A stretch of 64,000 bases of DNA, from assembly GCF_009931435.1 (NCBI RefSeq), contig NZ_CP043414.1; one strand, written 5' to 3'. The translations under genes were made by a program, and so were the position numbers. This DNA comes from Escherichia coli. GTDB lineage: Bacteria > Pseudomonadota > Gammaproteobacteria > Enterobacterales > Enterobacteriaceae. Shown here one piece after another: positions 3,209 to 43,395 of the stretch. Below the pieces are notes generated by a model that saw nothing but the letters and a program-made list of their open reading frames with translations, was not told the origin of the DNA and ran no database searches. The first letter of the stretch is position 1. Each line of letters opens with the position of its first letter.

Positions 3209-3235
3209 TTTTCCGTTGAAATGCGATGTGCTGGT

Positions 3236-3322
3236 TTGTAGGCCTGATAAGACGCGCCAGCGTCGCATCAGGCATCCGCGCATAGCCGCCGGATGCGGCG
3301 TGAACGCCTTATCCGGCCTACC
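3236..3322. repeat. REP/BIME palindromic elements in the cnoX-fetB spacer
   Basis: Two inverted REP units read directly: gtaggcctgataagacgcgccagcgtcgcatcaggc and gccggatgcggcgtgaacgccttatccggcctac. Confidence 0.8.
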
Positions 3323-6304: not shown

Positions 6305-6386
6305 TGCGACGCTGGCGCGTCTTATCATGCCTACAAAATATGCCCGAATCGTAGGCCAGATAAGGTGCTTGCGCCGCATCCGGCAT
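6301..6386. repeat. REP/BIME palindromic elements at the ybbJ 3' end
   Basis: ctgatgcgacgctggcgcgtcttatcatgcctac ... gtaggccagataaggtgcttgcgccgcatccggca, read directly. This marks the left edge of the ybbJ-cueR insert. Confidence 0.75.
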
Positions 6387-6406
6387 ATAGCCGAGTAGAG
6401 GCAAAA

Positions 6407-6769
6407 TTACTCTTCCCGGCCTTTACCCATACTTTTTTGGTCTTCATCCGGATAATGTTTTTTTAGATATTCCAGGACGTTTTTATTGACCTTGTGTTGC
6501 GTATACACCCACCCTTTCCAGTAATCAGGCTGGTCCAGGTAAACTTCTGGCGGAATGGTGAAATCAGAAAGCGTTAACCATTCGGCTAATAGATCGGGGT
6601 TTCGTTTCTGGATTAACTGCAACAGCATAATCAGTGACATAGCTGAGGCAGGAGCCGTACTATCGCCACTTAAATATTTCCACACTGTTGACCGGTTCGA
6701 ACGAAAAAGGATCGGTAGCAATGCCCGGTCCAGATTCATTTCATTAAAAATCTTCTCAAATTCATTCAT
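6407..6769 (-). CDS. Hypothetical 120-aa protein (no motif I recognise), first gene of the ybbJ-cueR accessory block
   Basis: Intact ORF with an AGGAAA Shine-Dalgarno about 8 nt upstream; transcribed divergently from the autotransporter-like gene across an AT-rich spacer. Confidence 0.5.
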   Translation of the reverse strand: MNEFEKIFNEMNLDRALLPILFRSNRSTVWKYLSGDSTAPASAMSLIMLLQLIQKRNPDLLAEWLTLSDFTIPPEVYLDQPDYWKGWVYTQHKVNKNVLEYLKKHYPDEDQKSMGKGREE

Positions 6770-7135
6770 TTAAATTTTCCTGCCTGGCGTAAACCTCTTA
6801 AAAATTGAGATTTATCAAAGAAACGCATTTTAGCACACATCAGGAACTGCTTCACGTTTAGTCCAGAAACAGAATTTATTTCGCTTATCAAAACAAGTCT
6901 TTACTCTTTTTTACATTGAAAGAGCACGAAATGATTTCCTTTTTTATTTATATAAGAAACCATTTTTGTTTCTTATTGATGGTGTTTACGCTTACACCAG
7001 ACAAAAATGCGCTTTACATCACACAAATGGCGGCGTAGATTTCGATTAAATTGCAACGTAGTTTATTTCTTAAAACAATATTATTTGTTTCTTATGGAAA
7101 CATTAATGCGACTTATTTTGAACAAGAGAAAATGA

Positions 7136-8152
7136 ATGAAAACTGTAAACGTAGCTTTACTGGCACTCATAATTTCAGCAACATCCAGCCCTATTGTTTT
7201 AGCTGGTGATACCATTGAAGCGGCGGCAACAGAGCTTTCAGCCATTAACTCTGGCATGTCGCAATCGGAGATTGAGCAGAAGATTACCCGCTTTTTAGAA
7301 CGCACCGACAACAGCCCCGCTGCATATACCTATTTGACTGAACATCACTACATCCCTTCTGAAACACCTGATACCACTCTGACTCCCCCTGTCCAGACAG
7401 ATCCTGACGCAGGACAAAAAACCGTTGCCGCTACAGGTGATGTACAGACAACCGCCCGTTATCAGAGCATGATCAACGCCCGACAGTCTGCGGTAACTGA
7501 TGCCCAGCAAACGCAAATTACAGAGCAACAGGCGCAGATCGTAGCCACACAAAAAACGCTCGCCGCGACTGGAGATACGCAAAATACCGCGCATTATCAG
7601 GAGATGATTAATGCCAGGCTGGCGGCTCAAAATGAGGCTAATCAGCGCACTACCACTGAACAAGGGCAGAAAATGAATGCGCTGACAACCGATGTGGCAG
7701 CACAACAGCAATATGAAAGGACTCAATACGATAAACAAATGCAAAGTCTGGCGCAGAAGTCTGTCCAGGCACATGAGCAAATTGAAAGTCTGAGACAAGA
7801 TTCCGCACAAACGCAGCAACAGTTAACCAACACCCAAAACCGGGTCGCTGATAACAGCCAGCAAATTAACACGCTCAATAACCATTTCGATTCTCTGAAA
7901 AACGAAGTTGAGGACAATCGTAAAGAAGCCAATGCGGGAACTGCATCTGCCATCGCTATCGCCTCACAACCACAGGTGAAAACCGGTGACTTGATGATGG
8001 TGTCAGCGGGAGCGGGAACGTTCAACGGTGAATCTGCGGTGTCTGTAGGAACATCTTTTAATGCCGGAACGCATACGGTACTTAAAGCAGGTATTTCTGC
8101 GGATACACAATCTGATTTCGGTGCGGGTGTCGGCGTGGGATATTCGTTCTAA
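7136..8152 (+). CDS. Short trimeric-autotransporter-like protein with YadA-type C-terminal membrane anchor
   Basis: N-terminal signal peptide (MKTVNVALLALIISATSSPIVLAGD), Q-rich coiled-coil stalk with an internal ~40-aa duplication, and a C-terminal ~75 aa (ASAIAIASQPQ...GDLMMVSAGAGTFNGESAVSVG...FGAGVGVGYSF) matching the YadA anchor pattern with a terminal aromatic. Confidence 0.75.
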   Translation: MKTVNVALLALIISATSSPIVLAGDTIEAAATELSAINSGMSQSEIEQKITRFLERTDNSPAAYTYLTEHHYIPSETPDTTLTPPVQTDPDAGQKTVAATGDVQTTARYQSMINARQSAVTDAQQTQITEQQAQIVATQKTLAATGDTQNTAHYQEMINARLAAQNEANQRTTTEQGQKMNALTTDVAAQQQYERTQYDKQMQSLAQKSVQAHEQIESLRQDSAQTQQQLTNTQNRVADNSQQINTLNNHFDSLKNEVEDNRKEANAGTASAIAIASQPQVKTGDLMMVSAGAGTFNGESAVSVGTSFNAGTHTVLKAGISADTQSDFGAGVGVGYSF

Positions 8153-8205
8153 TTTTAACAGCAATTTCTTATTCGCAATTTTCCGCACATTATTTAAGGT
8201 TAACA

Positions 8206-8628
8206 ATGATGAATAGCTCCATTAAATCGTTTTCCCTGCTGGCGGTTATATTACTGGCTGGCTGTAGTTCACCCACTTCCGGCATCGCAGATTGCCAGGC
8301 GCAGGGCGTCAGTCATGATACCTGTTATCTCGCAGAACAGCAGCGTCAGACGGCTATTTTAAGTGCATCCGAGGCGCAGGCATTTAAAAATGCAGAAGCC
8401 GCACAACATGCCCAGGCGGCAAAGAAAGCCATTTATAAAGGATTTGGCGTCACCTTCAGAATGAGCAGTAAGAACTTTGCTTATCTCAATGATTCATTAT
8501 GTGCCATAGATGAAGATAATGCCGATGCCACGGTTTATCAGTCGGGTCTGTATAACGTCATTGTTTATCATCACACAGGAAAAATCGCCTTAATGAAAGA
8601 AGGCCAGTTTGTGGGTTATTTAAAATGA
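8206..8628 (+). CDS. Putative lipoprotein (140 aa)
   Basis: Signal peptide ending in lipobox L-A-G-C (LLAGCSS); same strand and immediately downstream of the autotransporter-like gene. Confidence 0.6.
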   Translation: MMNSSIKSFSLLAVILLAGCSSPTSGIADCQAQGVSHDTCYLAEQQRQTAILSASEAQAFKNAEAAQHAQAAKKAIYKGFGVTFRMSSKNFAYLNDSLCAIDEDNADATVYQSGLYNVIVYHHTGKIALMKEGQFVGYLK

Positions 8629-8816
8629 AACTCACGCTTATACATATTATGATTATTGGCGCTTTTATCTTTGCATTCTTGCAAGTGGTATTATTAGCCT
8701 CCCTGGTTCACGCTATGAATGTTAACAACGAAATCCAGGAAGGCTTATTTCAGTCGGGGCGCATTATGGTAGAAAGTTTGCAGCATATTCTTTCGGTGCA
8801 AACGGGGATTAACTGA
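8625..8816 (+). CDS. Putative small membrane protein (63 aa), translationally coupled to the lipoprotein gene
   Basis: ATGA start/stop overlap with the upstream ORF; one predicted transmembrane helix (IMIIGAFIFAFLQVVLLASLV). Its stop lies 3 bp from the convergent cueR stop. Confidence 0.4.
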   Translation: MKLTLIHIMIIGAFIFAFLQVVLLASLVHAMNVNNEIQEGLFQSGRIMVESLQHILSVQTGIN

Positions 8817-8819
8817 TTT

Positions 8820-9227
8820 TCACCCTGCCCGATGATGACAGCAGCCAGAGAGATTTTCGATAATCGGGCAATCGGCGCTGTCATCACCGGGGCAGGCATT
8901 CGCCAGCGCCAGTAGCTGGTCGCGCATGGATTGCAGCTCCTCAATGTGCCGTTCGATCTCCGCCACCTTCTCCAGCGTGCGCCGTTTTACATCGGCGCTA
9001 TGCCGCTGCGGGTCGTTAAACAGATTTACCAGTTCGCCGCTCTCTTCCAGGTTAAAGCCCACCTGGCGCGCCTGGCGCAGTAAGGTCAGTTCGTTGAGAT
9101 GCTGCTGCGTGTAGGTTCGATAACCATTTTCGCTGCGCATCGGCGGCGTCACCAGCCCCTTTTCTTCATAGAAGCGAATGGCTTTGCTGGTCAGGCCGGT
9201 AATTTTTGCTACATCGCTAATGTTCAT
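8820..9227 (-). CDS. cueR: Cu(I)-responsive MerR-family transcriptional activator CueR
   Basis: 135-aa [29 protein letters not shown]..., with the MerR HTH and the C-terminal metal-binding [10 protein letters not shown] motif. Confidence 0.95.
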
Positions 9228-35134: not shown

Positions 35135-36427
35135 TTATACGGCTTTATTGCGCTTCATGACCATTGCCACAATAAGGCTGAGTAAGAGCGCGCCAATAAT
35201 CCATATCAGCGCACGACTGCCCTGGGACCACAGACTGTAGATGAAGCCAACGATCACCAACAACATAACCAACGTGCCAACGATAAGAATCGGCAACGAG
35301 GCATGGATATCATGACGCAGGCGGATCGCCACCACAAACACCGCCAGGTAGCAGATCAAAAAGGTGGCACTGGCAACGCTGGCGAGTGAGCCTAAATTTA
35401 GCGCCGCCGTCATCAGCATAATCAACACCACGACGATGATGTTGCCCCAGGTACTCTGCCGCCACAGAGATTTATTCATTAGCTTCGGCAGTTCGCGTTC
35501 GCTTCCCATGTTGTCCATGATGTTAAACACGGCGAACAGGTTCGCGTTGATGGCTGAAGCCGTCGCCAGTAAAGCACCGATGACAACGATCACATAACCC
35601 ACATGCCCGAGGAGCGGAGATGCGGCCTGCGCTACGGCGGTATCGGCATATTTTTCTAACTCTAATGCCGATACATCGCTAAGCAGTACCAGCGCCAGCG
35701 CGATGTAAAGCAGTGTGGTAACGCCAATCGCCACCAGAAACGCCCGTGGCATAATGACCGCCGGATCTTTCACTTTATCCGCCGCGTTCGCCATCATGCC
35801 AAAGCCCGCATAGGCAAGGAAGGTTATCCCGATACAGGAGAAGAACGCACCGGAGCTGGGAGGCGCAGAGACGGAAATATGCGCCGGTTGTAGCGACCAG
35901 ACACCGGCAATAATCAGCAATAACAGGATCATCATTTTAATGCCGACGAGGATCACTTCCAGCCGCCCTACCGCATGGTTGCTTAAGGAGTTGAAAAGCG
36001 TCATCACCGCAATGATCCCCAACGCGTAGAGCAGAATAAGGTGCTCCTCCTGGCTGCCTTCATGCAAAAACTGCACGGCATAAGCGCCAAAAGCACGGGC
36101 GACCATGGCGATGCTTACCGCCAGCGTCAACAGGTACAGTAACGAGAGCGCCAGCGAAAAGACGCCGTTGCCTAATCCGCGACGAAAGAAGTCGATAATA
36201 CCGCCATTGCTGGGATAGCTCGCCCCCAGACGCGCATAGGCATAACCAGAAAACATCGCCACAATACCACCAAAAGCAAAGGCGACCCAGGTCGAGGCTT
36301 CCATTAGCAACGCAGCCTGCCCCAGCAGCGCGAAGATCCCCGCCCCCACCATTGCCCCAATGCCAATGGAAACGACGTTCCATAGACCGAGGGGTTTGTT
36401 ACCGTTATTACCTTCCGTGTTCATCAT
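35135..36427 (-). CDS. ybaT: APC-superfamily amino-acid transporter YbaT
   Basis: 430-aa polytopic membrane ORF, co-oriented with and directly downstream of glsA as in K-12. Confidence 0.85.
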   Translation of the reverse strand: MMNTEGNNGNKPLGLWNVVSIGIGAMVGAGIFALLGQAALLMEASTWVAFAFGGIVAMFSGYAYARLGASYPSNGGIIDFFRRGLGNGVFSLALSLLYLLTLAVSIAMVARAFGAYAVQFLHEGSQEEHLILLYALGIIAVMTLFNSLSNHAVGRLEVILVGIKMMILLLLIIAGVWSLQPAHISVSAPPSSGAFFSCIGITFLAYAGFGMMANAADKVKDPAVIMPRAFLVAIGVTTLLYIALALVLLSDVSALELEKYADTAVAQAASPLLGHVGYVIVVIGALLATASAINANLFAVFNIMDNMGSERELPKLMNKSLWRQSTWGNIIVVVLIMLMTAALNLGSLASVASATFLICYLAVFVVAIRLRHDIHASLPILIVGTLVMLLVIVGFIYSLWSQGSRALIWIIGALLLSLIVAMVMKRNKAV

Positions 36428-36429
36428 GA

Positions 36430-37362
36430 TCAGCCCTTAAACACGTTATAGCCGAGTTGATTAGCGACCGATGCCACCATTTTTTGACCGCGAACACTGT
36501 TGCCTTCTTCGTCCAGTGGTGGTGAAAACGCGGCAATTCCCATCACGCCAGGGACAACCGCCAGAATACCGCCACCTACACCGCTTTTGCCCGGTAAACC
36601 AACGCGATATGCCCAGTCACCGGAGCGACCATACAGCCCTTCCATCATCATTTCGGCCAGAATGCACGGCACGTTGTCGGCCTGAAGAACGCGTTTATGC
36701 GTCAGCGGATTCACACCACCCGCCGCCAGCGTCGCGCCAAGCGTTGCCAGTTCAATAGTATTGAGGAGCGTGGAGCACTGACGGGTATACACGTCACAGG
36801 CTTCCATTGCATCACAATAGAGATATCCGGCGGAGTACAGCAGCCAGGCTATGGCCCGGTTATGGAAGTTGGTTGTTTGTTCCGACTGGTTGACTTCATC
36901 AGAGAGCGCTACCTGCTCACCAGCCAGTTGTTGTTGGATATGTAAAATTCGCTGCCAGCGTTGTTCAGTATTTTCAGCGTTAATCAGGCTGGTGGTGGCA
37001 ATAGCGCCAGCATTTACCAGTGGCGAAAGCGGTTTGCCGCCATGCAACTCTAAGGCGATAACGGAGTTAAAGGGCAATCCGGTCGGGTCAGCGCCAACTT
37101 TGTCCTGTACCGCCTGCGGGCCGACATCTTCTAACGCAAGGGCTAACGTACAGACTTTTGAGATGGATTCCAGCGCAAAGCGGTAATCACTGTCACCCGC
37201 GCTAAAGACTTTACCATCGCAGGTCACGATAGCCACTGCCGCCAGTTGACTGGGCACATTCGCCAGAAAGGGAATGTAATCGGCATTTTGTCCGCCGTTA
37301 AGTGAGTGAAATTGGGTGTAAGCCTGATCCACTGCCTGCTGTAATGTGTTTGCATCTAACAT
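36430..37362 (-). CDS. glsA: Glutaminase 1
   Basis: 310-aa ORF MLDANTLQQAVDQAYTQFHSLNGGQNADYIPFLANVPSQL..., serine-dependent glutaminase family. Confidence 0.9.
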   Translation of the reverse strand: MLDANTLQQAVDQAYTQFHSLNGGQNADYIPFLANVPSQLAAVAIVTCDGKVFSAGDSDYRFALESISKVCTLALALEDVGPQAVQDKVGADPTGLPFNSVIALELHGGKPLSPLVNAGAIATTSLINAENTEQRWQRILHIQQQLAGEQVALSDEVNQSEQTTNFHNRAIAWLLYSAGYLYCDAMEACDVYTRQCSTLLNTIELATLGATLAAGGVNPLTHKRVLQADNVPCILAEMMMEGLYGRSGDWAYRVGLPGKSGVGGGILAVVPGVMGIAAFSPPLDEEGNSVRGQKMVASVANQLGYNVFKG

Positions 37363-37553: not shown

Positions 37554-37584
37554 TTGACCTTCCCCTTGCTGGAAGGTTTAACCT
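37554..37584 (+). promoter_or_regulatory. copA promoter with CueR operator (MerR-type 19-bp spacer)
   Basis: TTGACC (-35, 37554-37559), dyad ACCTTCCCCTTGCTGGAAGGT within a 19-bp spacer, TAACCT (-10, 37579-37584); AAGGAG RBS at 37611-37616 ahead of the copA ATG. Matches the known copA promoter architecture as I recall it. Confidence 0.8.
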
Positions 37585-37623
37585 TTATCACAGCCAGTCA
37601 AAACTGTCTCAAAGGAGTACGTT

Positions 37624-40128
37624 ATGTCACAAACTATCGACCTGACCCTGGACGGCCTGTCCTGCGGTCACTGCGTTAAACGCGTGAAAGAAAGTCTCGA
37701 ACAGCGCCCGGATGTTGAACAGGCGGATGTGTCTGTCACTGAAGCGCACGTTACCGGGACTGCCAGTGCAGAACAGCTGATCGAAACCATCAAACAAGCG
37801 GGTTATGACGCATCTGTAAGCCACCCAAAGGCTAAACCGCTGGCGGAGTCATCAATCCCGTCGGAAGCACTGACAGCGGTTTCTGAGGCGCTTCCGGCAG
37901 CGACCGCCGATGACGATGACAGCCAGCAGTTGCTGCTGAGCGGCATGAGCTGCGCCAGCTGTGTCACCCGCGTACAAAATGCGCTGCAAAGCGTACCGGG
38001 CGTCACTCAGGCACGGGTAAACCTGGCGGAGCGTACTGCGCTGGTGATGGGCAGTGCCTCCCCACAAGATTTAGTGCAGGCGGTGGAAAAAGCGGGCTAC
38101 GGCGCGGAAGCGATTGAAGATGACGCGAAACGCCGTGAGCGCCAGCAGGAAACCGCCGTCGCTACCATGAAGCGCTTCCGCTGGCAGGCAATTGTCGCAC
38201 TGGCGGTGGGTATCCCGGTGATGGTCTGGGGGATGATTGGCGATAACATGATGGTCACCGCTGACAACCGCAGCCTGTGGTTAGTTATCGGCCTGATAAC
38301 GCTGGCGGTAATGGTTTTCGCCGGCGGGCATTTTTACCGTAGCGCATGGAAAAGCCTGCTGAACGGTGCGGCGACAATGGATACGCTGGTGGCGCTGGGT
38401 ACTGGCGTGGCGTGGCTCTATTCAATGAGCGTCAACCTGTGGCCGCAGTGGTTCCCGATGGAAGCGCGACATCTTTATTACGAAGCCAGTGCGATGATTA
38501 TCGGTCTGATTAATCTCGGTCATATGCTGGAAGCGCGCGCACGTCAGCGTTCTTCAAAGGCGCTGGAGAAATTACTCGATTTAACCCCGCCGACGGCGCG
38601 CCTGGTCACTGACGAAGGTGAAAAAAGCGTGCCGCTGGCAGATGTTCAGCCTGGTATGTTACTACGCCTGACGACCGGCGATCGTGTACCGGTAGATGGT
38701 GAAATTACCCAGGGCGAAGCGTGGCTGGATGAAGCAATGCTGACGGGCGAACCTATCCCACAACAAAAAGGCGAAGGCGATAGCGTTCATGCCGGTACCG
38801 TGGTGCAGGACGGTAGCGTGCTGTTTCGTGCCAGTGCGGTTGGCAGCCATACTACGCTGTCACGGATCATTCGTATGGTGCGCCAGGCCCAGAGCAGTAA
38901 ACCGGAAATCGGCCAGTTGGCGGATAAAATCTCTGCCGTATTTGTGCCGGTAGTGGTGGTGATTGCGCTGGTCAGTGCGGCAATCTGGTACTTCTTTGGT
39001 CCGGCACCGCAAATTGTTTATACCCTGGTGATTGCCACTACGGTACTGATTATCGCCTGCCCGTGTGCGCTGGGGCTGGCAACGCCAATGTCGATTATTT
39101 CCGGCGTAGGGCGTGCGGCTGAATTTGGCGTGCTGGTGCGGGACGCCGACGCGCTGCAGCGCGCCAGTACGCTCGATACCGTAGTATTCGATAAAACCGG
39201 GACGCTGACGGAAGGTAAACCGCAGGTTGTCGCGGTGAAAACATTTGCTGATGTTGACGAAGCGCAGGCGCTGCGTCTGGCGGCGGCACTGGAACAAGGT
39301 TCCAGCCATCCGCTGGCACGGGCGATCCTCGATAAAGCAGGCGATATGCAGCTGCCGCAGGTCAACAGCTTCCGTACATTGCGTGGGCTGGGCGTGAGCG
39401 GTGAAGCAGAAGGTCATGCGTTATTGCTGGGTAATCAGGCGTTGTTAAATGACCAGCAAGTCGATACTAAAGCGATTGAAGCAGATATTTCAGCCCAGGC
39501 ATCGCAAGGGGCAACGCCTGTGCTGCTGGCGGTTGACGGGAAAGCGGTAGCCCTGCTGGCTGTACGCGATCCATTGCGTAGTGATAGCGTGGCGGCGCTG
39601 CAACGTCTGCATAAAGCGGGATATCGTCTGGTGATGCTAACCGGGGATAACCCGACCACCGCCAATGCGATCGCCAAAGAGGCAGGGATTGATGAGGTGA
39701 TAGCCGGGGTGCTGCCAGACGGTAAAGCCGAAGCGATCAAACGTCTGCAAAGTGAAGGACGTCAGGTGGCAATGGTGGGTGACGGCATTAACGACGCGCC
39801 AGCACTGGCTCAGGCGGATGTCGGTATTGCTATGGGTGGCGGCAGTGATGTTGCCATTGAAACCGCGGCGATTACCCTGATGCGCCATAGCCTGATGGGT
39901 GTTGCGGATGCGCTCGCAATTTCCCGCGCAACGCTGCGCAACATGAAGCAGAACCTGCTCGGTGCGTTTATCTACAACAGCATTGGTATTCCGGTCGCCG
40001 CCGGTATTTTGTGGCCGTTCACGGGAACACTGCTTAACCCGGTAGTAGCCGGGGCAGCAATGGCACTCTCGTCGATTACCGTAGTGAGTAACGCCAACCG
40101 GTTGCTGCGGTTTAAACCGAAAGAGTGA
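37624..40128 (+). CDS. copA: Cu(I)-exporting P1B-type ATPase CopA
   Basis: 834-aa ORF with two N-terminal CxxC metal-binding domains ([16 protein letters not shown]), CPC transmembrane metal site, DKTGT phosphorylation motif and GDGINDAP. Confidence 0.95.
37824..37830 (+). other. copA: Programmed -1 ribosomal frameshift site producing CopA(Z)
   Basis: Slippery heptamer C CCA AAG at copA codons 68-69 (...VSHPKAKPL). In the -1 frame the next codons are GGC TAA, giving a ~70-aa product ending ...HPKG, consistent with the described CopA(Z) metallochaperone. Confidence 0.7.
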
Positions 40129-40556
40129 TTGTTATTTACTTAATGCGTTTGTGAGATCCAGTTCTTGTTGCGCTCCTTTTATGAGTCATGCCATATAAAG
40201 TGACTGGCGCAAGGAGCGCGCAGGGGGCGGCCAATCGCCGCCGCCCCCTGCACCCCCGGGCTCTGGCGAACAAAATCGCCGCTGCGCGGTACCCTCGGCT
40301 TATCCCTTGCGGCTACCGGGTCGGGCGCGAGGTAACATCCCTGTAAAACGCGCCCTCAGCCCACATCCATGTGGGCTGCCCCGGCCTTCAGGGAACGCCT
40401 CGGCGATTTTGACGCCACCAACACCCGTGCAGTCTTTCGTTTCAAAGCAAAAACAATTTTTCGATCATATTTAAGCTACCACTGAACAAGCCTCATAACT
40501 CCATTTGCGCCATCCCTCACCGCGCGCTAGCATGATATTTCACAAAGGGAGGTCGT

Positions 40557-42034: not shown

Positions 42035-42057
42035 GTGATGCACACGGAAGATGAGAT

Positions 42058-42858
42058 GTGGAAAGGATTACAGAGACATTAAGTATCGCTTGTGCAGATG
42101 AGATACCGGATATCGCCTTACTTCGGCAAACATCGAGAGAAAAGGTATTACATCTGCATTTTGCCAGCGAAGCAGAGAGGTATCGTGAGGAATTCGGGCT
42201 GGTGCTGAAAGCACAGCTCGATGAATTTGTTGTTGGCATGCATTCTGCCGACCCGGTTATCAGGATCGCCAGATTAATATCGCTTGAAGAGATTAACCGC
42301 CATCAGGATTTTTTCGAACACTGCGCGAAAGAATATCGTAAGCTGGCGACAGAGCTTATATTTGCATTGGCTGAACAACTGAACGTTGAGATGGCGGAAA
42401 ATAACCCGCTAGTTACCTTTGCCCCCTTCAAATGCAACCGTAAGCGAAAAGGCAAAATGGGAAAGTGGCAGTATTGTTTTCATGGTTTTCATTGTGCATT
42501 TGAGAATAAAAAAACAGAGCAAAATATTGAAGTTCCCCTCGCCTACGGCTTTGATTTCGGCGATCTGGACCCGTATTTTTTTTCCGTATTTATCAAATCG
42601 ACCCCCGCCTGGCAGCCTCTGCCAGTGGCTATTTACGATGATTACCACGACGGCAGCAGGATCATTCAACAACTGCTGGCGCTGGGAAAGTTAGAAAAAA
42701 TCCCTTCACCGATCCCACAATACACGGGTGTTGCTGCGGTAGATTGGTCCAATGTCGACATCGCAAGTTTTCGCTCAACACTGGAGAGTCGCCTGCACCG
42801 ATGCAAATTACGCTGGCTTTTGAAGCATGTAAAAAACTCACAAAGGAGCGAAAGATGA
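42058..42858 (+). CDS. Hypothetical protein A (~266 aa; start uncertain), first gene of a two-gene module between ybaK and ushA
   Basis: Track ORF begins at a GTG 24 nt after the ybaK stop; the first in-frame ATG is ~60 codons in. No transmembrane segment or NTPase motif seen. Cys/His cluster CNRKRKGKMGKWQYCFHGFHC could be a metal-binding knuckle. Its stop overlaps the next gene's ATG (ATGA). Confidence 0.5.
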   Translation: MERITETLSIACADEIPDIALLRQTSREKVLHLHFASEAERYREEFGLVLKAQLDEFVVGMHSADPVIRIARLISLEEINRHQDFFEHCAKEYRKLATELIFALAEQLNVEMAENNPLVTFAPFKCNRKRKGKMGKWQYCFHGFHCAFENKKTEQNIEVPLAYGFDFGDLDPYFFSVFIKSTPAWQPLPVAIYDDYHDGSRIIQQLLALGKLEKIPSPIPQYTGVAAVDWSNVDIASFRSTLESRLHRCKLRWLLKHVKNSQRSER

Positions 42859-43358
42859 AATTTGACCATCTTGTTGATGTTAGCTTCCACAATTTTGTCT
42901 TTAACGGAAAATTCGATTTTGTCGAACTGGGGCAAACAATGGCATGGTTGGAACAAAACTTTATTGAGCCGGACTCTAAAAATGATATGGGAAATGGTTT
43001 TTATATCTGGCTATTTGGTAATGTTGAGTTTCATTTCGAAAACAACAAGCTATATATGATTTGGTACGATTATCTGAGCCAAATCCATTTGGGCAAAGCG
43101 ATCCGATTTGATAAAGGAATATTGAATAACGTCGCTGAGTTGAACGTTACGCGTGTATTTAACATGCTTGTTAACGAAGGCGCTGATCTGCAAATCCACC
43201 GTCAATCGCCCCATACACTATTAATCCACGTCAATCGCTCAGGCGTGACACTTTGGTTTGAAGCAGATGAAGAACAGCCCGGTGAACCGCAGAATTATAT
43301 GCTGATGGCATTTGGTTTGACACATCGCGATTACGATGCAAGATTTCAATATTCATAA
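42855..43358 (+). CDS. Hypothetical protein B (167 aa), translationally coupled to protein A
   Basis: ATG at 42855 is preceded by a strong AGGAG Shine-Dalgarno (caaAGGAGcgaaagATG); the track ORF (42744) extends upstream in frame but I prefer this start. Aromatic-rich soluble protein (MKFDHLVDVSFHNFVFNGKFDFVELG...); no motif I recognise. Confidence 0.5.
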   Translation: MKFDHLVDVSFHNFVFNGKFDFVELGQTMAWLEQNFIEPDSKNDMGNGFYIWLFGNVEFHFENNKLYMIWYDYLSQIHLGKAIRFDKGILNNVAELNVTRVFNMLVNEGADLQIHRQSPHTLLIHVNRSGVTLWFEADEEQPGEPQNYMLMAFGLTHRDYDARFQYS

Positions 43359-43395
43359 ATGGCGGCGTCATATCATGACGCCGCGACAGGGTTCA

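Follow-up and report, generated by a model that had tools for sequence, protein, structure and literature searches.

Sequence conservation points to an intact copA −1 frameshift cassette in a diverged Escherichia

Results

The copA gene, its promoter and its neighbourhood

The window analysed here, a stretch of 64,000 nucleotides taken at its full length, contains a copA gene preceded by a promoter and a ribosome-binding site.

37554–37584, plus strand: copA promoter of the MerR/CueR type, with −35 TTGACC (37554–59) and −10 TAACCT (37579–84)
37613–37617, plus strand: Shine–Dalgarno sequence AGGAG, 6 nt 5′ of the copA ATG
37624–40128, plus strand: copA, whose 834-aa zero-frame product is a copper-exporting P1B-type ATPase with two N-terminal HMA domains

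The 834-aa protein matched the NCBIfam equivalog NF007952 at 1748 bits (cut-off 1316). The gene showed 94.7% nucleotide identity to K-12-like copA, with 133 of 2505 bases differing (5.3%), and the two proteins differed at nine amino acids over their whole length. Between the Shine–Dalgarno sequence and the ATG, three substitutions relative to K-12 were found. The promoter has a 19-bp spacer between −35 and −10, together with a perfect dyad, ACCTTCC-N7-GGAAGGT (37557–77), and the entire segment 37554–37584 has the same sequence as in the K-12-like locus. From established knowledge of PcopA, we take this dyad to be the CueR operator. Both the 19-bp spacing and the CCTTCC-N7-GGAAGG dyad of CueR-regulon promoters are present at 37554–37584, which suggests that copA is a member of this regulon here. 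A sigma-70 promoter scan upstream of copA returned no match, because the scan allows spacers of 16–18 bp only.

The regulator gene itself was found at a considerable distance.

8820–9227, minus strand: cueR, 28.4 kb from the copA start

The original prediction had placed copA one gene from cueR, which proved wrong. Six genes lie between them: glsA, ybaT, an interrupted TolC-like gene and three secretion/adhesin genes, namely a 6923-aa adhesin ORF, a type I secretion ABC permease/ATPase gene and an HlyD-family adaptor gene. Relative to the K-12 neighbourhood, a secretion island is present here and ybaQ is absent. The suggestion that the promoter context of cueR is altered in this genome held loosely, in that the stop codon of the HlyD-family gene overlaps the cueR ATG. 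K-12 retains a 98-nt remnant of the HlyD-family gene; therefore, the K-12 arrangement is the derived one. The same junction between the HlyD-family gene and cueR is seen in 959 of 5426 complete E. coli genomes. The genes copA and cueR are directly divergent in Salmonella, Pluralibacter and Klebsiella, and in Cronobacter and Mixta cueR is on the same side; neither is the case in Escherichia.

A slippery heptamer, an immediate −1 stop and a 70-aa product

At the end of the region encoding the first metal-binding domain, we located the elements of a −1 frameshift site.

37624–37835, plus strand: predicted CopA(Z) coding range, in the zero frame to 37830, with base 37830 re-read in GGC, then TAA
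37824–37830, plus strand: slippery heptamer C CCA AAG (X XXY YYZ), copA codons 68–69
37833–37835, plus strand: −1-frame stop TAA, one sense codon (GGC, 37830–32) past the heptamer

The heptamer lies in frame, directly 3′ of the first metal-binding domain, and is read as the end of codon 67 (CAC, 37822–24) followed by codons 68 (CCA, 37825–27) and 69 (AAG, 37828–30). It is intact, as had been predicted, and the same as in K-12; the −1-frame GGC TAA that was expected after it was likewise present at 37830–37835. The −1 frame over the site translates as ..K P P K G *, and therefore a slipped ribosome would decode GGC and halt at TAA immediately downstream, giving a product of about 70 aa. The predicted CopA(Z) consists of residues 1–69 plus Gly (70 aa, C-terminus HPKG).

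On its own, the heptamer is unremarkable: CCCAAAG occurs four times on both strands of the window (expected, 7.96 ± 3.31), and X_XXY_YYZ heptamers in any phase number 354. Within copA, C CCA AAG at 37824–37830 is the sole in-frame X_XXY_YYZ heptamer. Transcriptional slippage at this site was considered and rejected; by general knowledge, RNA polymerase needs longer runs than C3 and A3 to slip.

The 70-aa product comprises one complete HMA domain (Pfam PF00403, residues 8–62, covering profile positions 3–62 of 62; E = 8e-14, 52 bits, cut-off 24.8) with a CxxC metal site, CGHC, at residues 14–17. It also matched PDB entries for metallochaperones and metal-binding domains, and CopZ-family NCBIfam models matched it but fell short of their equivalog cut-offs (NF047957, for instance, scored 60 vs 85 bits). 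With a full HMA domain and a CxxC motif, the predicted product fits a CopZ-like HMA metallochaperone.

The site is that of the −1 frameshift already published for E. coli copA, so that the original prediction was right to call it known biology. Meydan et al. (2017, Mol Cell 65:207) and Drees et al. (2017, Mol Microbiol 106:635) are each said to have described this frameshift as the source of CopA(Z). According to passages of PMC9548414 and PMC5009743, −1 frameshifting on E. coli copA is efficient, yields a 70-aa product beside the 834-aa one, and is backed by ribosome profiling and an independent study. Passages of these two sources, PMC7558416 and PMC6771820 treat production of the 70-aa chaperone from K-12-type copA by −1 frameshifting as experimentally established. 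The stimulators named in a passage of PMC7558416 are the slippery sequence, a pseudoknot and the nascent chain, and an excerpt of PMC6182138 states that variants in pseudoknot stem 1 and stem 2 alter frameshifting in single-molecule assays.

A predicted pseudoknot downstream of the heptamer

Two mutually crossing helices of the H type, each stable alone, can be drawn 3′ of the heptamer, in sequence that is the same as in K-12.

37837–37842, plus strand: predicted stem 1, 5′ arm CCGCUG, after a 6-nt spacer from the heptamer
37860–37868, plus strand: predicted stem 2, 5′ arm GUCGGAAGC, inside the stem 1 loop
37874–37879, plus strand: predicted stem 1, 3′ arm CAGCGG, followed by UUU in Escherichia
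37890–37898, plus strand: predicted stem 2, 3′ arm GCUUCCGGC, pairing with 37860–68

All six core pairs of stem 1 are kept in 10 of 10 distinct sequences, and the core hairpin comes to −9.2 kcal/mol and the extended one to −12.1 kcal/mol. Stem 2 has nine pairs, with 95.6% of cells paired, and as a hairpin reaches −14.2 kcal/mol. Variable columns are concentrated in the loops (22 of 32, vs 3 of 30 in the stems; Fisher P = 2e-6). The three stem changes are all one-sided and keep pairing (U.G to C-G, U.G to U-A and G-C to G.U), and a covariation count over the predicted stems in the 10 distinct sequences gave zero two-sided (compensatory) changes. The predicted pairs are thus supported by the pattern of conservation, without covariation.

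In Escherichia the 5′ arm of stem 1 extends to AAACCGCUG, from 37834. This AAA/UUU extension was rejected as a conserved feature, as it pairs in 2 of 10 distinct sequences, both from Escherichia. Nested minimum-free-energy folding of the region gave no unusual stability (z = −0.81), a value that is expected and uninformative for a pseudoknot. In an Rfam search the element had no family, every match lying far under the gathering score. No obvious Shine–Dalgarno-like element was seen upstream of the copA heptamer.

Conservation of the cassette across genera

We compared 11 related loci from Enterobacteriaceae and Erwiniaceae, and aligned synonymous sites over five genera. A contig search for copA, swamped by the universal P-type ATPase motif MVGDGIND, gave three Enterobacterales loci, and further orthologues were collected by protein searches and from their encoding contigs. 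Error-ridden assemblies (among them L085 and L088) were read around the frameshift site only. The alignment revealed one outstanding segment.

37819–37899, plus strand: frozen synonymous block, codons 66–92, in the linker between the two metal-binding domains

Among 810 windows of 25 codons in the five-genus alignment, those over codons 65–92 were the least variable at synonymous sites: their value was 0.10, the gene averaged 0.43, and the next-lowest window outside this region stood at 0.23. In 100000 random draws, so low a value never came up. Codons 66–91 include 19 degenerate codons with a conserved residue, and 18 of these are the same in all five genera, compared with 27% gene-wide (binomial P = 6.6e-10). 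Synonymous variation is thus suppressed over the frameshift signal.

None of the 11 related loci has lost the heptamer, which is exactly CCCAAAG in ten (Citrobacter, Enterobacter in two assemblies, Salmonella, Raoultella, Klebsiella, Cronobacter, Buttiauxella, Mixta and GCA_039593615) and CCCAAAA in Pluralibacter. A −1 stop occurs at the same position in 10 of the 11, as TAA or TGA, and stays while zero-frame residues 70–71 change (AK, AN, AE, SD, PD). The exception is the Pluralibacter assembly L087, in which an extra A in the heptamer makes TGA a zero-frame stop; a second Pluralibacter protein, reading ..HPKTEPL.., is consistent with the usual arrangement. As judged from these alignments, the position, phase and flanks of the heptamer are conserved far beyond chance.

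Neither Photorhabdus nor the distant CopA genes that were examined carry the cassette. A few copA genes of Firmicutes (L021, L022 and L030) have sporadic slippery heptamers beyond the first HMA domain; these were set aside as likely chance occurrences in A+T-rich DNA.

Conservation within Escherichia

The 391 nt at 37736–38126 (codons 38–168) show zero differences from K-12-like copA. Of 5422 E. coli genomes, 5404 match the 104-nt cassette at 99% identity or better, and over the last 1629 nt of copA the same number of genomes reach just 90–95%; in only 18 of the 5422 genomes labelled E. coli does the 3′ part of copA exceed 95% identity. The host belongs to a divergent Escherichia lineage, in which the cassette is unchanged though copA is otherwise about 5% diverged. 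Of the nascent chain, residues 39–69 equal those of K-12, and residue 38 is V here and I in K-12; this position (I38V, in the first domain) is at the far end of the nascent chain.

Identity also continues 3′ of the pseudoknot. In 5396 of 5422 E. coli genomes, and in this divergent lineage, the segment 37916–38126 has 99% identity or more; the 211 nt after 38126 reach that level in none. In length, the invariant Escherichia tract is about four times the frameshift cassette, and across genera only codons 66–92 are frozen. Because identity runs well past the cassette, part of the Escherichia-level identity around it may stem from recombination and not from selection on frameshifting. It is unlikely that a second, Escherichia-specific element acts at the RNA level and overlaps the sequence coding for the second metal-binding domain; a recombination sweep is the more ordinary explanation of the 391-nt tract. 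If real, such an element might tune frameshift efficiency through a long-range structure, or be the determinant of the short copA transcript.

Discussion

The elements of the cassette are all there in the right phase, strong purifying selection acts on them at the nucleotide level, and they are the same as in K-12. Heptamer, phase, codon numbers, −1 stop, 70-aa product, spacer, pseudoknot-forming sequence and promoter all agree with K-12 copA; the differences are I38V, the substitutions between Shine–Dalgarno sequence and ATG, and the overall base divergence. Every cis element that could be checked is therefore that of a K-12-type gene, which supports the original reading of the locus as a CopA(Z) frameshift site. 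On this sequence evidence, the locus very probably carries an intact E. coli-type copA −1 programmed ribosomal frameshift cassette. Because the elements match K-12 and are conserved, we infer that frameshifting takes place in this organism, at similar efficiency. CopA and CopA(Z) would then be co-produced here, and by analogy with published E. coli work, on which the expected efficiency also rests, the 70-aa product would work as a chaperone.

The proposed course of events is as follows. Copper-loaded CueR would switch on the MerR-type promoter at 37554–37584, and the first metal-binding (HMA) domain of CopA would be translated. With CCA in the P site and AAG in the A site, the ribosome would meet an H-type pseudoknot 6 nt downstream, in which 37837–42 pairs with 37874–79 (stem 1) and 37860–68 with 37890–98 (stem 2). 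In a fraction of ribosomes, the tRNAs would re-pair on CCC AAA, GGC would be read, and termination at TAA (37833–35) would release a free-standing 70-aa CopZ-like copper chaperone; the other ribosomes would go on to complete the 834-aa pump.

A different source of the small chaperone-like protein might be a separate short copA transcript, or other processing, with slippage a minor contributor and the conserved RNA block chiefly setting transcript ends or stability. A passage from Drees et al. was counted in favour of such a transcript, as was the invariant block 37736–38126, which is far longer than a frameshift cassette requires. A short transcript alone, however, would not select an in-phase heptamer, nor a TAA or TGA −1 stop amid changing zero-frame residues, and no terminator-like site was found on the plus strand 3′ of the cassette. 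Together with the efficient, ribosome-profiling-backed frameshifting described by secondary sources (in a passage of PMC9548414), these points make a mainly transcript-derived protein improbable. The short-transcript and frameshift routes are mutually compatible.

The conserved structure could also serve another role: it might pause translation for the sake of co-translational folding or membrane targeting, or affect how stable the mRNA is. The heptamer and −1 stop would then be by-products in a lineage with no productive frameshifting. Conservation of the predicted pseudoknot stems and part of loop 1 in their own right agrees with such a role. Yet the synonymous bases of the heptamer are invariant in the ten CCCAAAG loci (CAC not CAT, CCA not CCN, AAG not AAA), different codons maintain the −1 stop, and the sequence is that of K-12, where a passage of PMC9548414 has frameshifting demonstrated; we regard this possibility as highly improbable.

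Chance, with the motif following from the encoding of His-Pro-Lys-Ala-Lys and the E. coli identity reflecting a recent recombination import, is barely credible and strongly disfavoured: the heptamer is indeed common in the window (4 copies vs about 8 expected) and the identical tract exceeds the cassette and is Escherichia-specific outside codons 66–92, but recombination cannot give a five-genus synonymous freeze (P = 6.6e-10), and the −1 stop is kept without HPKAK in Mixta (RPKAE), Buttiauxella (HPKSD) and GCA_039593615 (SPKPD).

Programmed frameshifting thus remains the preferred reading, and E. coli dnaX (tau/gamma of DNA polymerase III) is a close parallel. In dnaX the signals are A AAA AAG, a stem-loop and an upstream internal Shine–Dalgarno sequence; copA here differs in having C CCA AAG and a predicted pseudoknot. 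Like copA, dnaX is a chromosomal, non-mobile gene with an X XXY YYZ −1 slip, a near-immediate stop that yields a shorter functional protein, and a stimulatory downstream RNA structure (PMC10861913, PMC6771820). The predicted product resembles the CopZ/Atx1-type chaperones of Enterococcus hirae and Bacillus subtilis (copZ), which are also HMA proteins of about 70 aa with a ferredoxin-like fold and CxxC, partnered with a CopA pump (PMC7558416). Those chaperones are encoded by stand-alone genes, whereas here the chaperone would be the pump's own first domain, freed by recoding. At locus L010, a copZ-like ORF and copA are split by a stop.

Current understanding of copA is unchanged by these results. 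The cassette is invariant in a diverged Escherichia, and the −1 stop and predicted pseudoknot stems are kept at 10 of 11 related loci. The importance of the site lies mainly in annotation, where, as had been anticipated, it is easy to miss: the RefSeq K-12-like locus carries a single copA CDS and no 70-aa product. Because annotation pipelines give one copA CDS and omit the 70-aa chaperone, inventories of copper homeostasis in Escherichia seem to lack a CopZ.

copA carries an intact −1 frameshift site

The product of the 834-codon copA ORF matched the NCBIfam equivalog NF007952 end to end (1748 bits, against a cut-off of 1316), and Pfam assigned it two N-terminal HMA domains, an E1-E2 ATPase domain and a HAD hydrolase domain. 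Counting codons from the ATG placed the heptamer C CCA AAG in X XXY YYZ phase, and the −1 frame across it reads K P P K G stop. The elements of the gene are as follows.

37554-37559, + strand: −35 element (TTGACC) of the CueR-type copA promoter
37579-37584, + strand: −10 element (TAACCT) of this promoter
37624-40128, + strand: copA ORF, encoding CopA
37822-37824, + strand: codon 67, CAC
37825-37827, + strand: codon 68, CCA
37828-37830, + strand: codon 69, AAG
37824-37830, + strand: slippery heptamer
37830-37832, + strand: GGC, read in the −1 frame after the slip
37833-37835, + strand: TAA, −1-frame stop
37837-37842 with 37874-37879, + strand: predicted pseudoknot stem 1, CCGCUG with CAGCGG
37860-37868 with 37890-37898, + strand: predicted pseudoknot stem 2, GUCGGAAGC with GCUUCCGGC

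The predicted frameshift product has 70 aa, consisting of CopA residues 1-69 plus Gly, and ends in HPKG. It is a single complete HMA domain (Pfam profile positions 3-62 of 62, E = 8e-14) with CGHC at residues 14-17, and it matches CopZ-type chaperone models as well as solved structures of metallochaperones and metal-binding domains. The original prediction of an intact copA frameshift site was accurate in its heptamer coordinates, codon numbers, −1 stop and C-terminal peptide, and is confirmed by sequence, phase and conservation. At the sequence level, its proposal that one mRNA would yield both CopA and a metallochaperone-like product of about 70 aa is also supported. Database proteins of exactly 70 aa ending in PPKG, for example from Salmonella, come from assemblies with upstream frameshift errors, in which the −1 frame is read into the same stop.

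A predicted pseudoknot lies downstream of the heptamer

Stems 1 and 2 cross each other to form a predicted H-type pseudoknot, in which stem 1 begins 6 nt past the heptamer; as separate hairpins, they had energies of −9.2 and −14.2 kcal/mol, respectively. In an 11-sequence alignment, the six pairs of the stem 1 core were intact in every row, and 95.6% of stem 2 cells were paired; an AAA/UUU extension of stem 1 was confined to Escherichia. Only 3 of 30 stem columns varied, with pairing preserved in all, versus 22 of 32 loop columns (Fisher P = 2e-6). Changes within the stems of this alignment were one-sided and pairing-preserving, with no two-sided compensatory change. Because variation is confined mostly to the loops, the predicted pseudoknot is backed by its conservation pattern and not by covariation. 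Nested folding of the region was uninformative (z = −0.81), and no Rfam family matched.

Conservation of the site exceeds chance

The bare CCCAAAG heptamer is no more than chance would give: it occurs four times on both strands of the window, versus 7.96 ± 3.31 in shuffles, and X_XXY_YYZ heptamers in any phase number 354. Within copA, C CCA AAG is the only such heptamer in frame. Compared with L001, a K-12-like locus, copA differs at 133 of 2505 bases (5.3%), giving nine amino-acid changes, with zero differences over the 391 nt from 37736 to 38126. The 104-nt cassette holding the heptamer and predicted pseudoknot (37812-37915) is found at ≥99% identity in 5404 of 5422 complete E. coli genomes, whereas the last 1629 nt of copA are just 90-95% identical to the same number, indicating a divergent Escherichia lineage with an unchanged cassette.

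We aligned copA codons from five genera (the window, Citrobacter, Enterobacter, Salmonella and Raoultella). Among 810 windows of 25 codons, synonymous variability was lowest in those across codons 65-92 (0.10; the gene mean was 0.43, and the next-lowest window outside this region reached 0.23), and none of 100,000 random draws of 25 codon columns was as low. Codons 66-91 belong to a linker between domains, where the protein itself should impose little constraint; of their 19 degenerate codons encoding a conserved residue, 18 were identical in the five genera, versus 27% gene-wide (binomial P = 6.6e-10).

The heptamer was kept at each of the 11 related loci compared (Citrobacter, two Enterobacter assemblies, Salmonella, Raoultella, Klebsiella, Cronobacter, Buttiauxella, Mixta, Pluralibacter and GCA_039593615), and the −1 stop lay exactly one codon past it at 10 of them. 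This stop alternates between TAA and TGA, and the zero-frame residues over it vary (AK, AN, AE, SD and PD). The arrangement of heptamer and −1 stop was absent from Photorhabdus, whose linker is different, and from the distant CopA genes compared. The copA frameshift elements are present, in phase, identical to the K-12 type and under selection.

How the −1 stop and the heptamer's synonymous positions behave speaks against each of three other accounts as a sole explanation. That a short transcript is the chief source of the small protein (Drees 2017) is compatible with frameshifting, and we consider it unlikely as the main route. It is highly improbable that the conserved RNA structure serves another role without productive frameshifting, and coincidence combined with recombination is the least credible of the three.

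Variant and look-alike sites

In Pluralibacter the heptamer is CCCAAAA. At 3201-3213 of L087 (Pluralibacter gergoviae, GCA_900454925.1), the slippery site reads CCCAAAAAAC TGA, with six A's; the extra A makes TGA a zero-frame stop, so the annotation gives the 70-aa product (..GHPKN) as the zero-frame ORF and calls the remainder of copA as a separate 635-aa ORF. A second Pluralibacter protein, P0056, reads ..HPKTEPL.., implying one A fewer and consistent with the usual arrangement. Either the extra A is an error of assembly, or a natural frameshift mutation has arisen precisely at the recoding site.

In a few copA genes of Firmicutes, slippery heptamers occur in frame just past the first HMA domain (AAAAAAA, TTTAAAA and GGGTTTT/TTTTTTT; L021 at 1884, L022 at 4271 and L030 at 1725-1734), with a −1 stop 0-3 codons downstream, possibly by chance in A+T-rich DNA. 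P0119, a 933-aa CopA from an ENA metagenome that is close to the E. coli type, has an internal tandem duplication of about 99 residues, from most of the second metal-binding domain to the start of the first transmembrane segment; this could be an assembly artefact or a genuine variant.

cueR lies beyond a type I secretion island

The original prediction placed copA one gene from cueR; in fact, 28.4 kb and six genes separate them.

8820-9227, − strand: cueR, 28.4 kb from the copA ATG
9224-10399, − strand: HlyD-family adaptor gene, its stop overlapping the cueR ATG
10396-12558, − strand: type I secretion permease/ATPase gene
12562-33333, − strand: 6923-aa repeat adhesin ORF with Ig-like repeats
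33442-34797, − strand: TolC-like outer-membrane gene, 451 codons, with an in-frame TAA at 33793-33795 (codon 335)
35135-36427: ybaT, between cueR and copA
36430-37362: glsA, between cueR and copA

Between cueR and ybaT is a type I secretion island about 25.6 kb long (9224-34797, − strand), whose interrupted TolC-like gene is probably a pseudogene. Given the overlap between the HlyD-family stop and the cueR start codon, cueR may share a transcript with the secretion genes or be translationally coupled to them. The same junction occurs in 959 of 5426 complete E. coli genomes, whereas in K-12 the HlyD-family gene is reduced to a 98-nt remnant annotated as a pseudogene. The proposed change in the promoter context of cueR holds relative to K-12 only, K-12 being the deleted state. 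In Salmonella, Pluralibacter and Klebsiella, cueR and copA are immediate divergent neighbours, and in Cronobacter and Mixta cueR is upstream of copA; neither arrangement is found in Escherichia.

There are other differences from K-12 in the window. ybaQ, which in K-12 encodes a HigA-family antitoxin, is missing between copA and ybaP, where the gap (40129-40556) measures 428 nt, compared with 794 nt in K-12. Part of the K-12 copA-ybaQ spacer (88 nt) matches 3234-3321 with 86% identity. Two segments have no counterpart in the K-12-like locus: about 2.5 kb between ybbJ and cueR (6305-8819), with ORFs at 7136-8152 (+, 338 aa), 8206-8628 (+, 140 aa) and 6407-6769 (−, 120 aa), and about 1.36 kb between ybaK and ushA (42036-43394), with ORFs at 42058-42858 and 42744-43358. 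Shared genes are about 95-96% identical to K-12, and the 3′ part of copA exceeds 95% identity in only 18 of 5422 genomes labelled E. coli (best NZ_AP027764.1, 99.3%), so the source probably belongs to a divergent or cryptic lineage of Escherichia, outside mainstream E. coli.

The invariant tract (37736-38126) far exceeds the cassette in length. Its 211 nt 3′ of the predicted pseudoknot (37916-38126) are at ≥99% identity in 5396 of 5422 E. coli genomes, versus none for the 211 nt beyond 38126. Codons 98-170 vary normally across genera, and the tract is frozen within Escherichia only; this would fit either a sweep by recombination or an additional element specific to Escherichia.

copA belongs to the known frameshift system

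As the original prediction acknowledged, this is known biology. Efficient −1 frameshifting in E. coli copA is reported to yield a 70-aa product alongside the 834-aa pump (PMC5009743), with strong ribosome-profiling support and independent confirmation described (PMC9548414). The truncated CopA(Z) is described as a copper chaperone (PMC6771820, PMC6747150), and stem 1 and stem 2 variants of the pseudoknot as altering frameshifting in single-molecule assays (PMC6182138). With no difference from the K-12-type sequence over 37736-38126, the window must share every mapped cis element. The CueR-type promoter, whose 19-bp spacer holds the dyad ACCTTCC-N7-GGAAGGT, is also identical to that of K-12. 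Judged by these identities, the window copA is a member of the known system and not a variant.

That frameshifting takes place in this organism, and how efficiently, is inferred. Copper would induce copA transcription, and a fraction of ribosomes would slip −1 on C CCA AAG, with the pseudoknot as stimulator, read one further codon and terminate, releasing the CopZ-like chaperone, while non-slipped ribosomes would make the CopA pump. It is very probable that copper-induced transcription and pseudoknot-stimulated slippage together supply a CopZ-like chaperone beside the pump.
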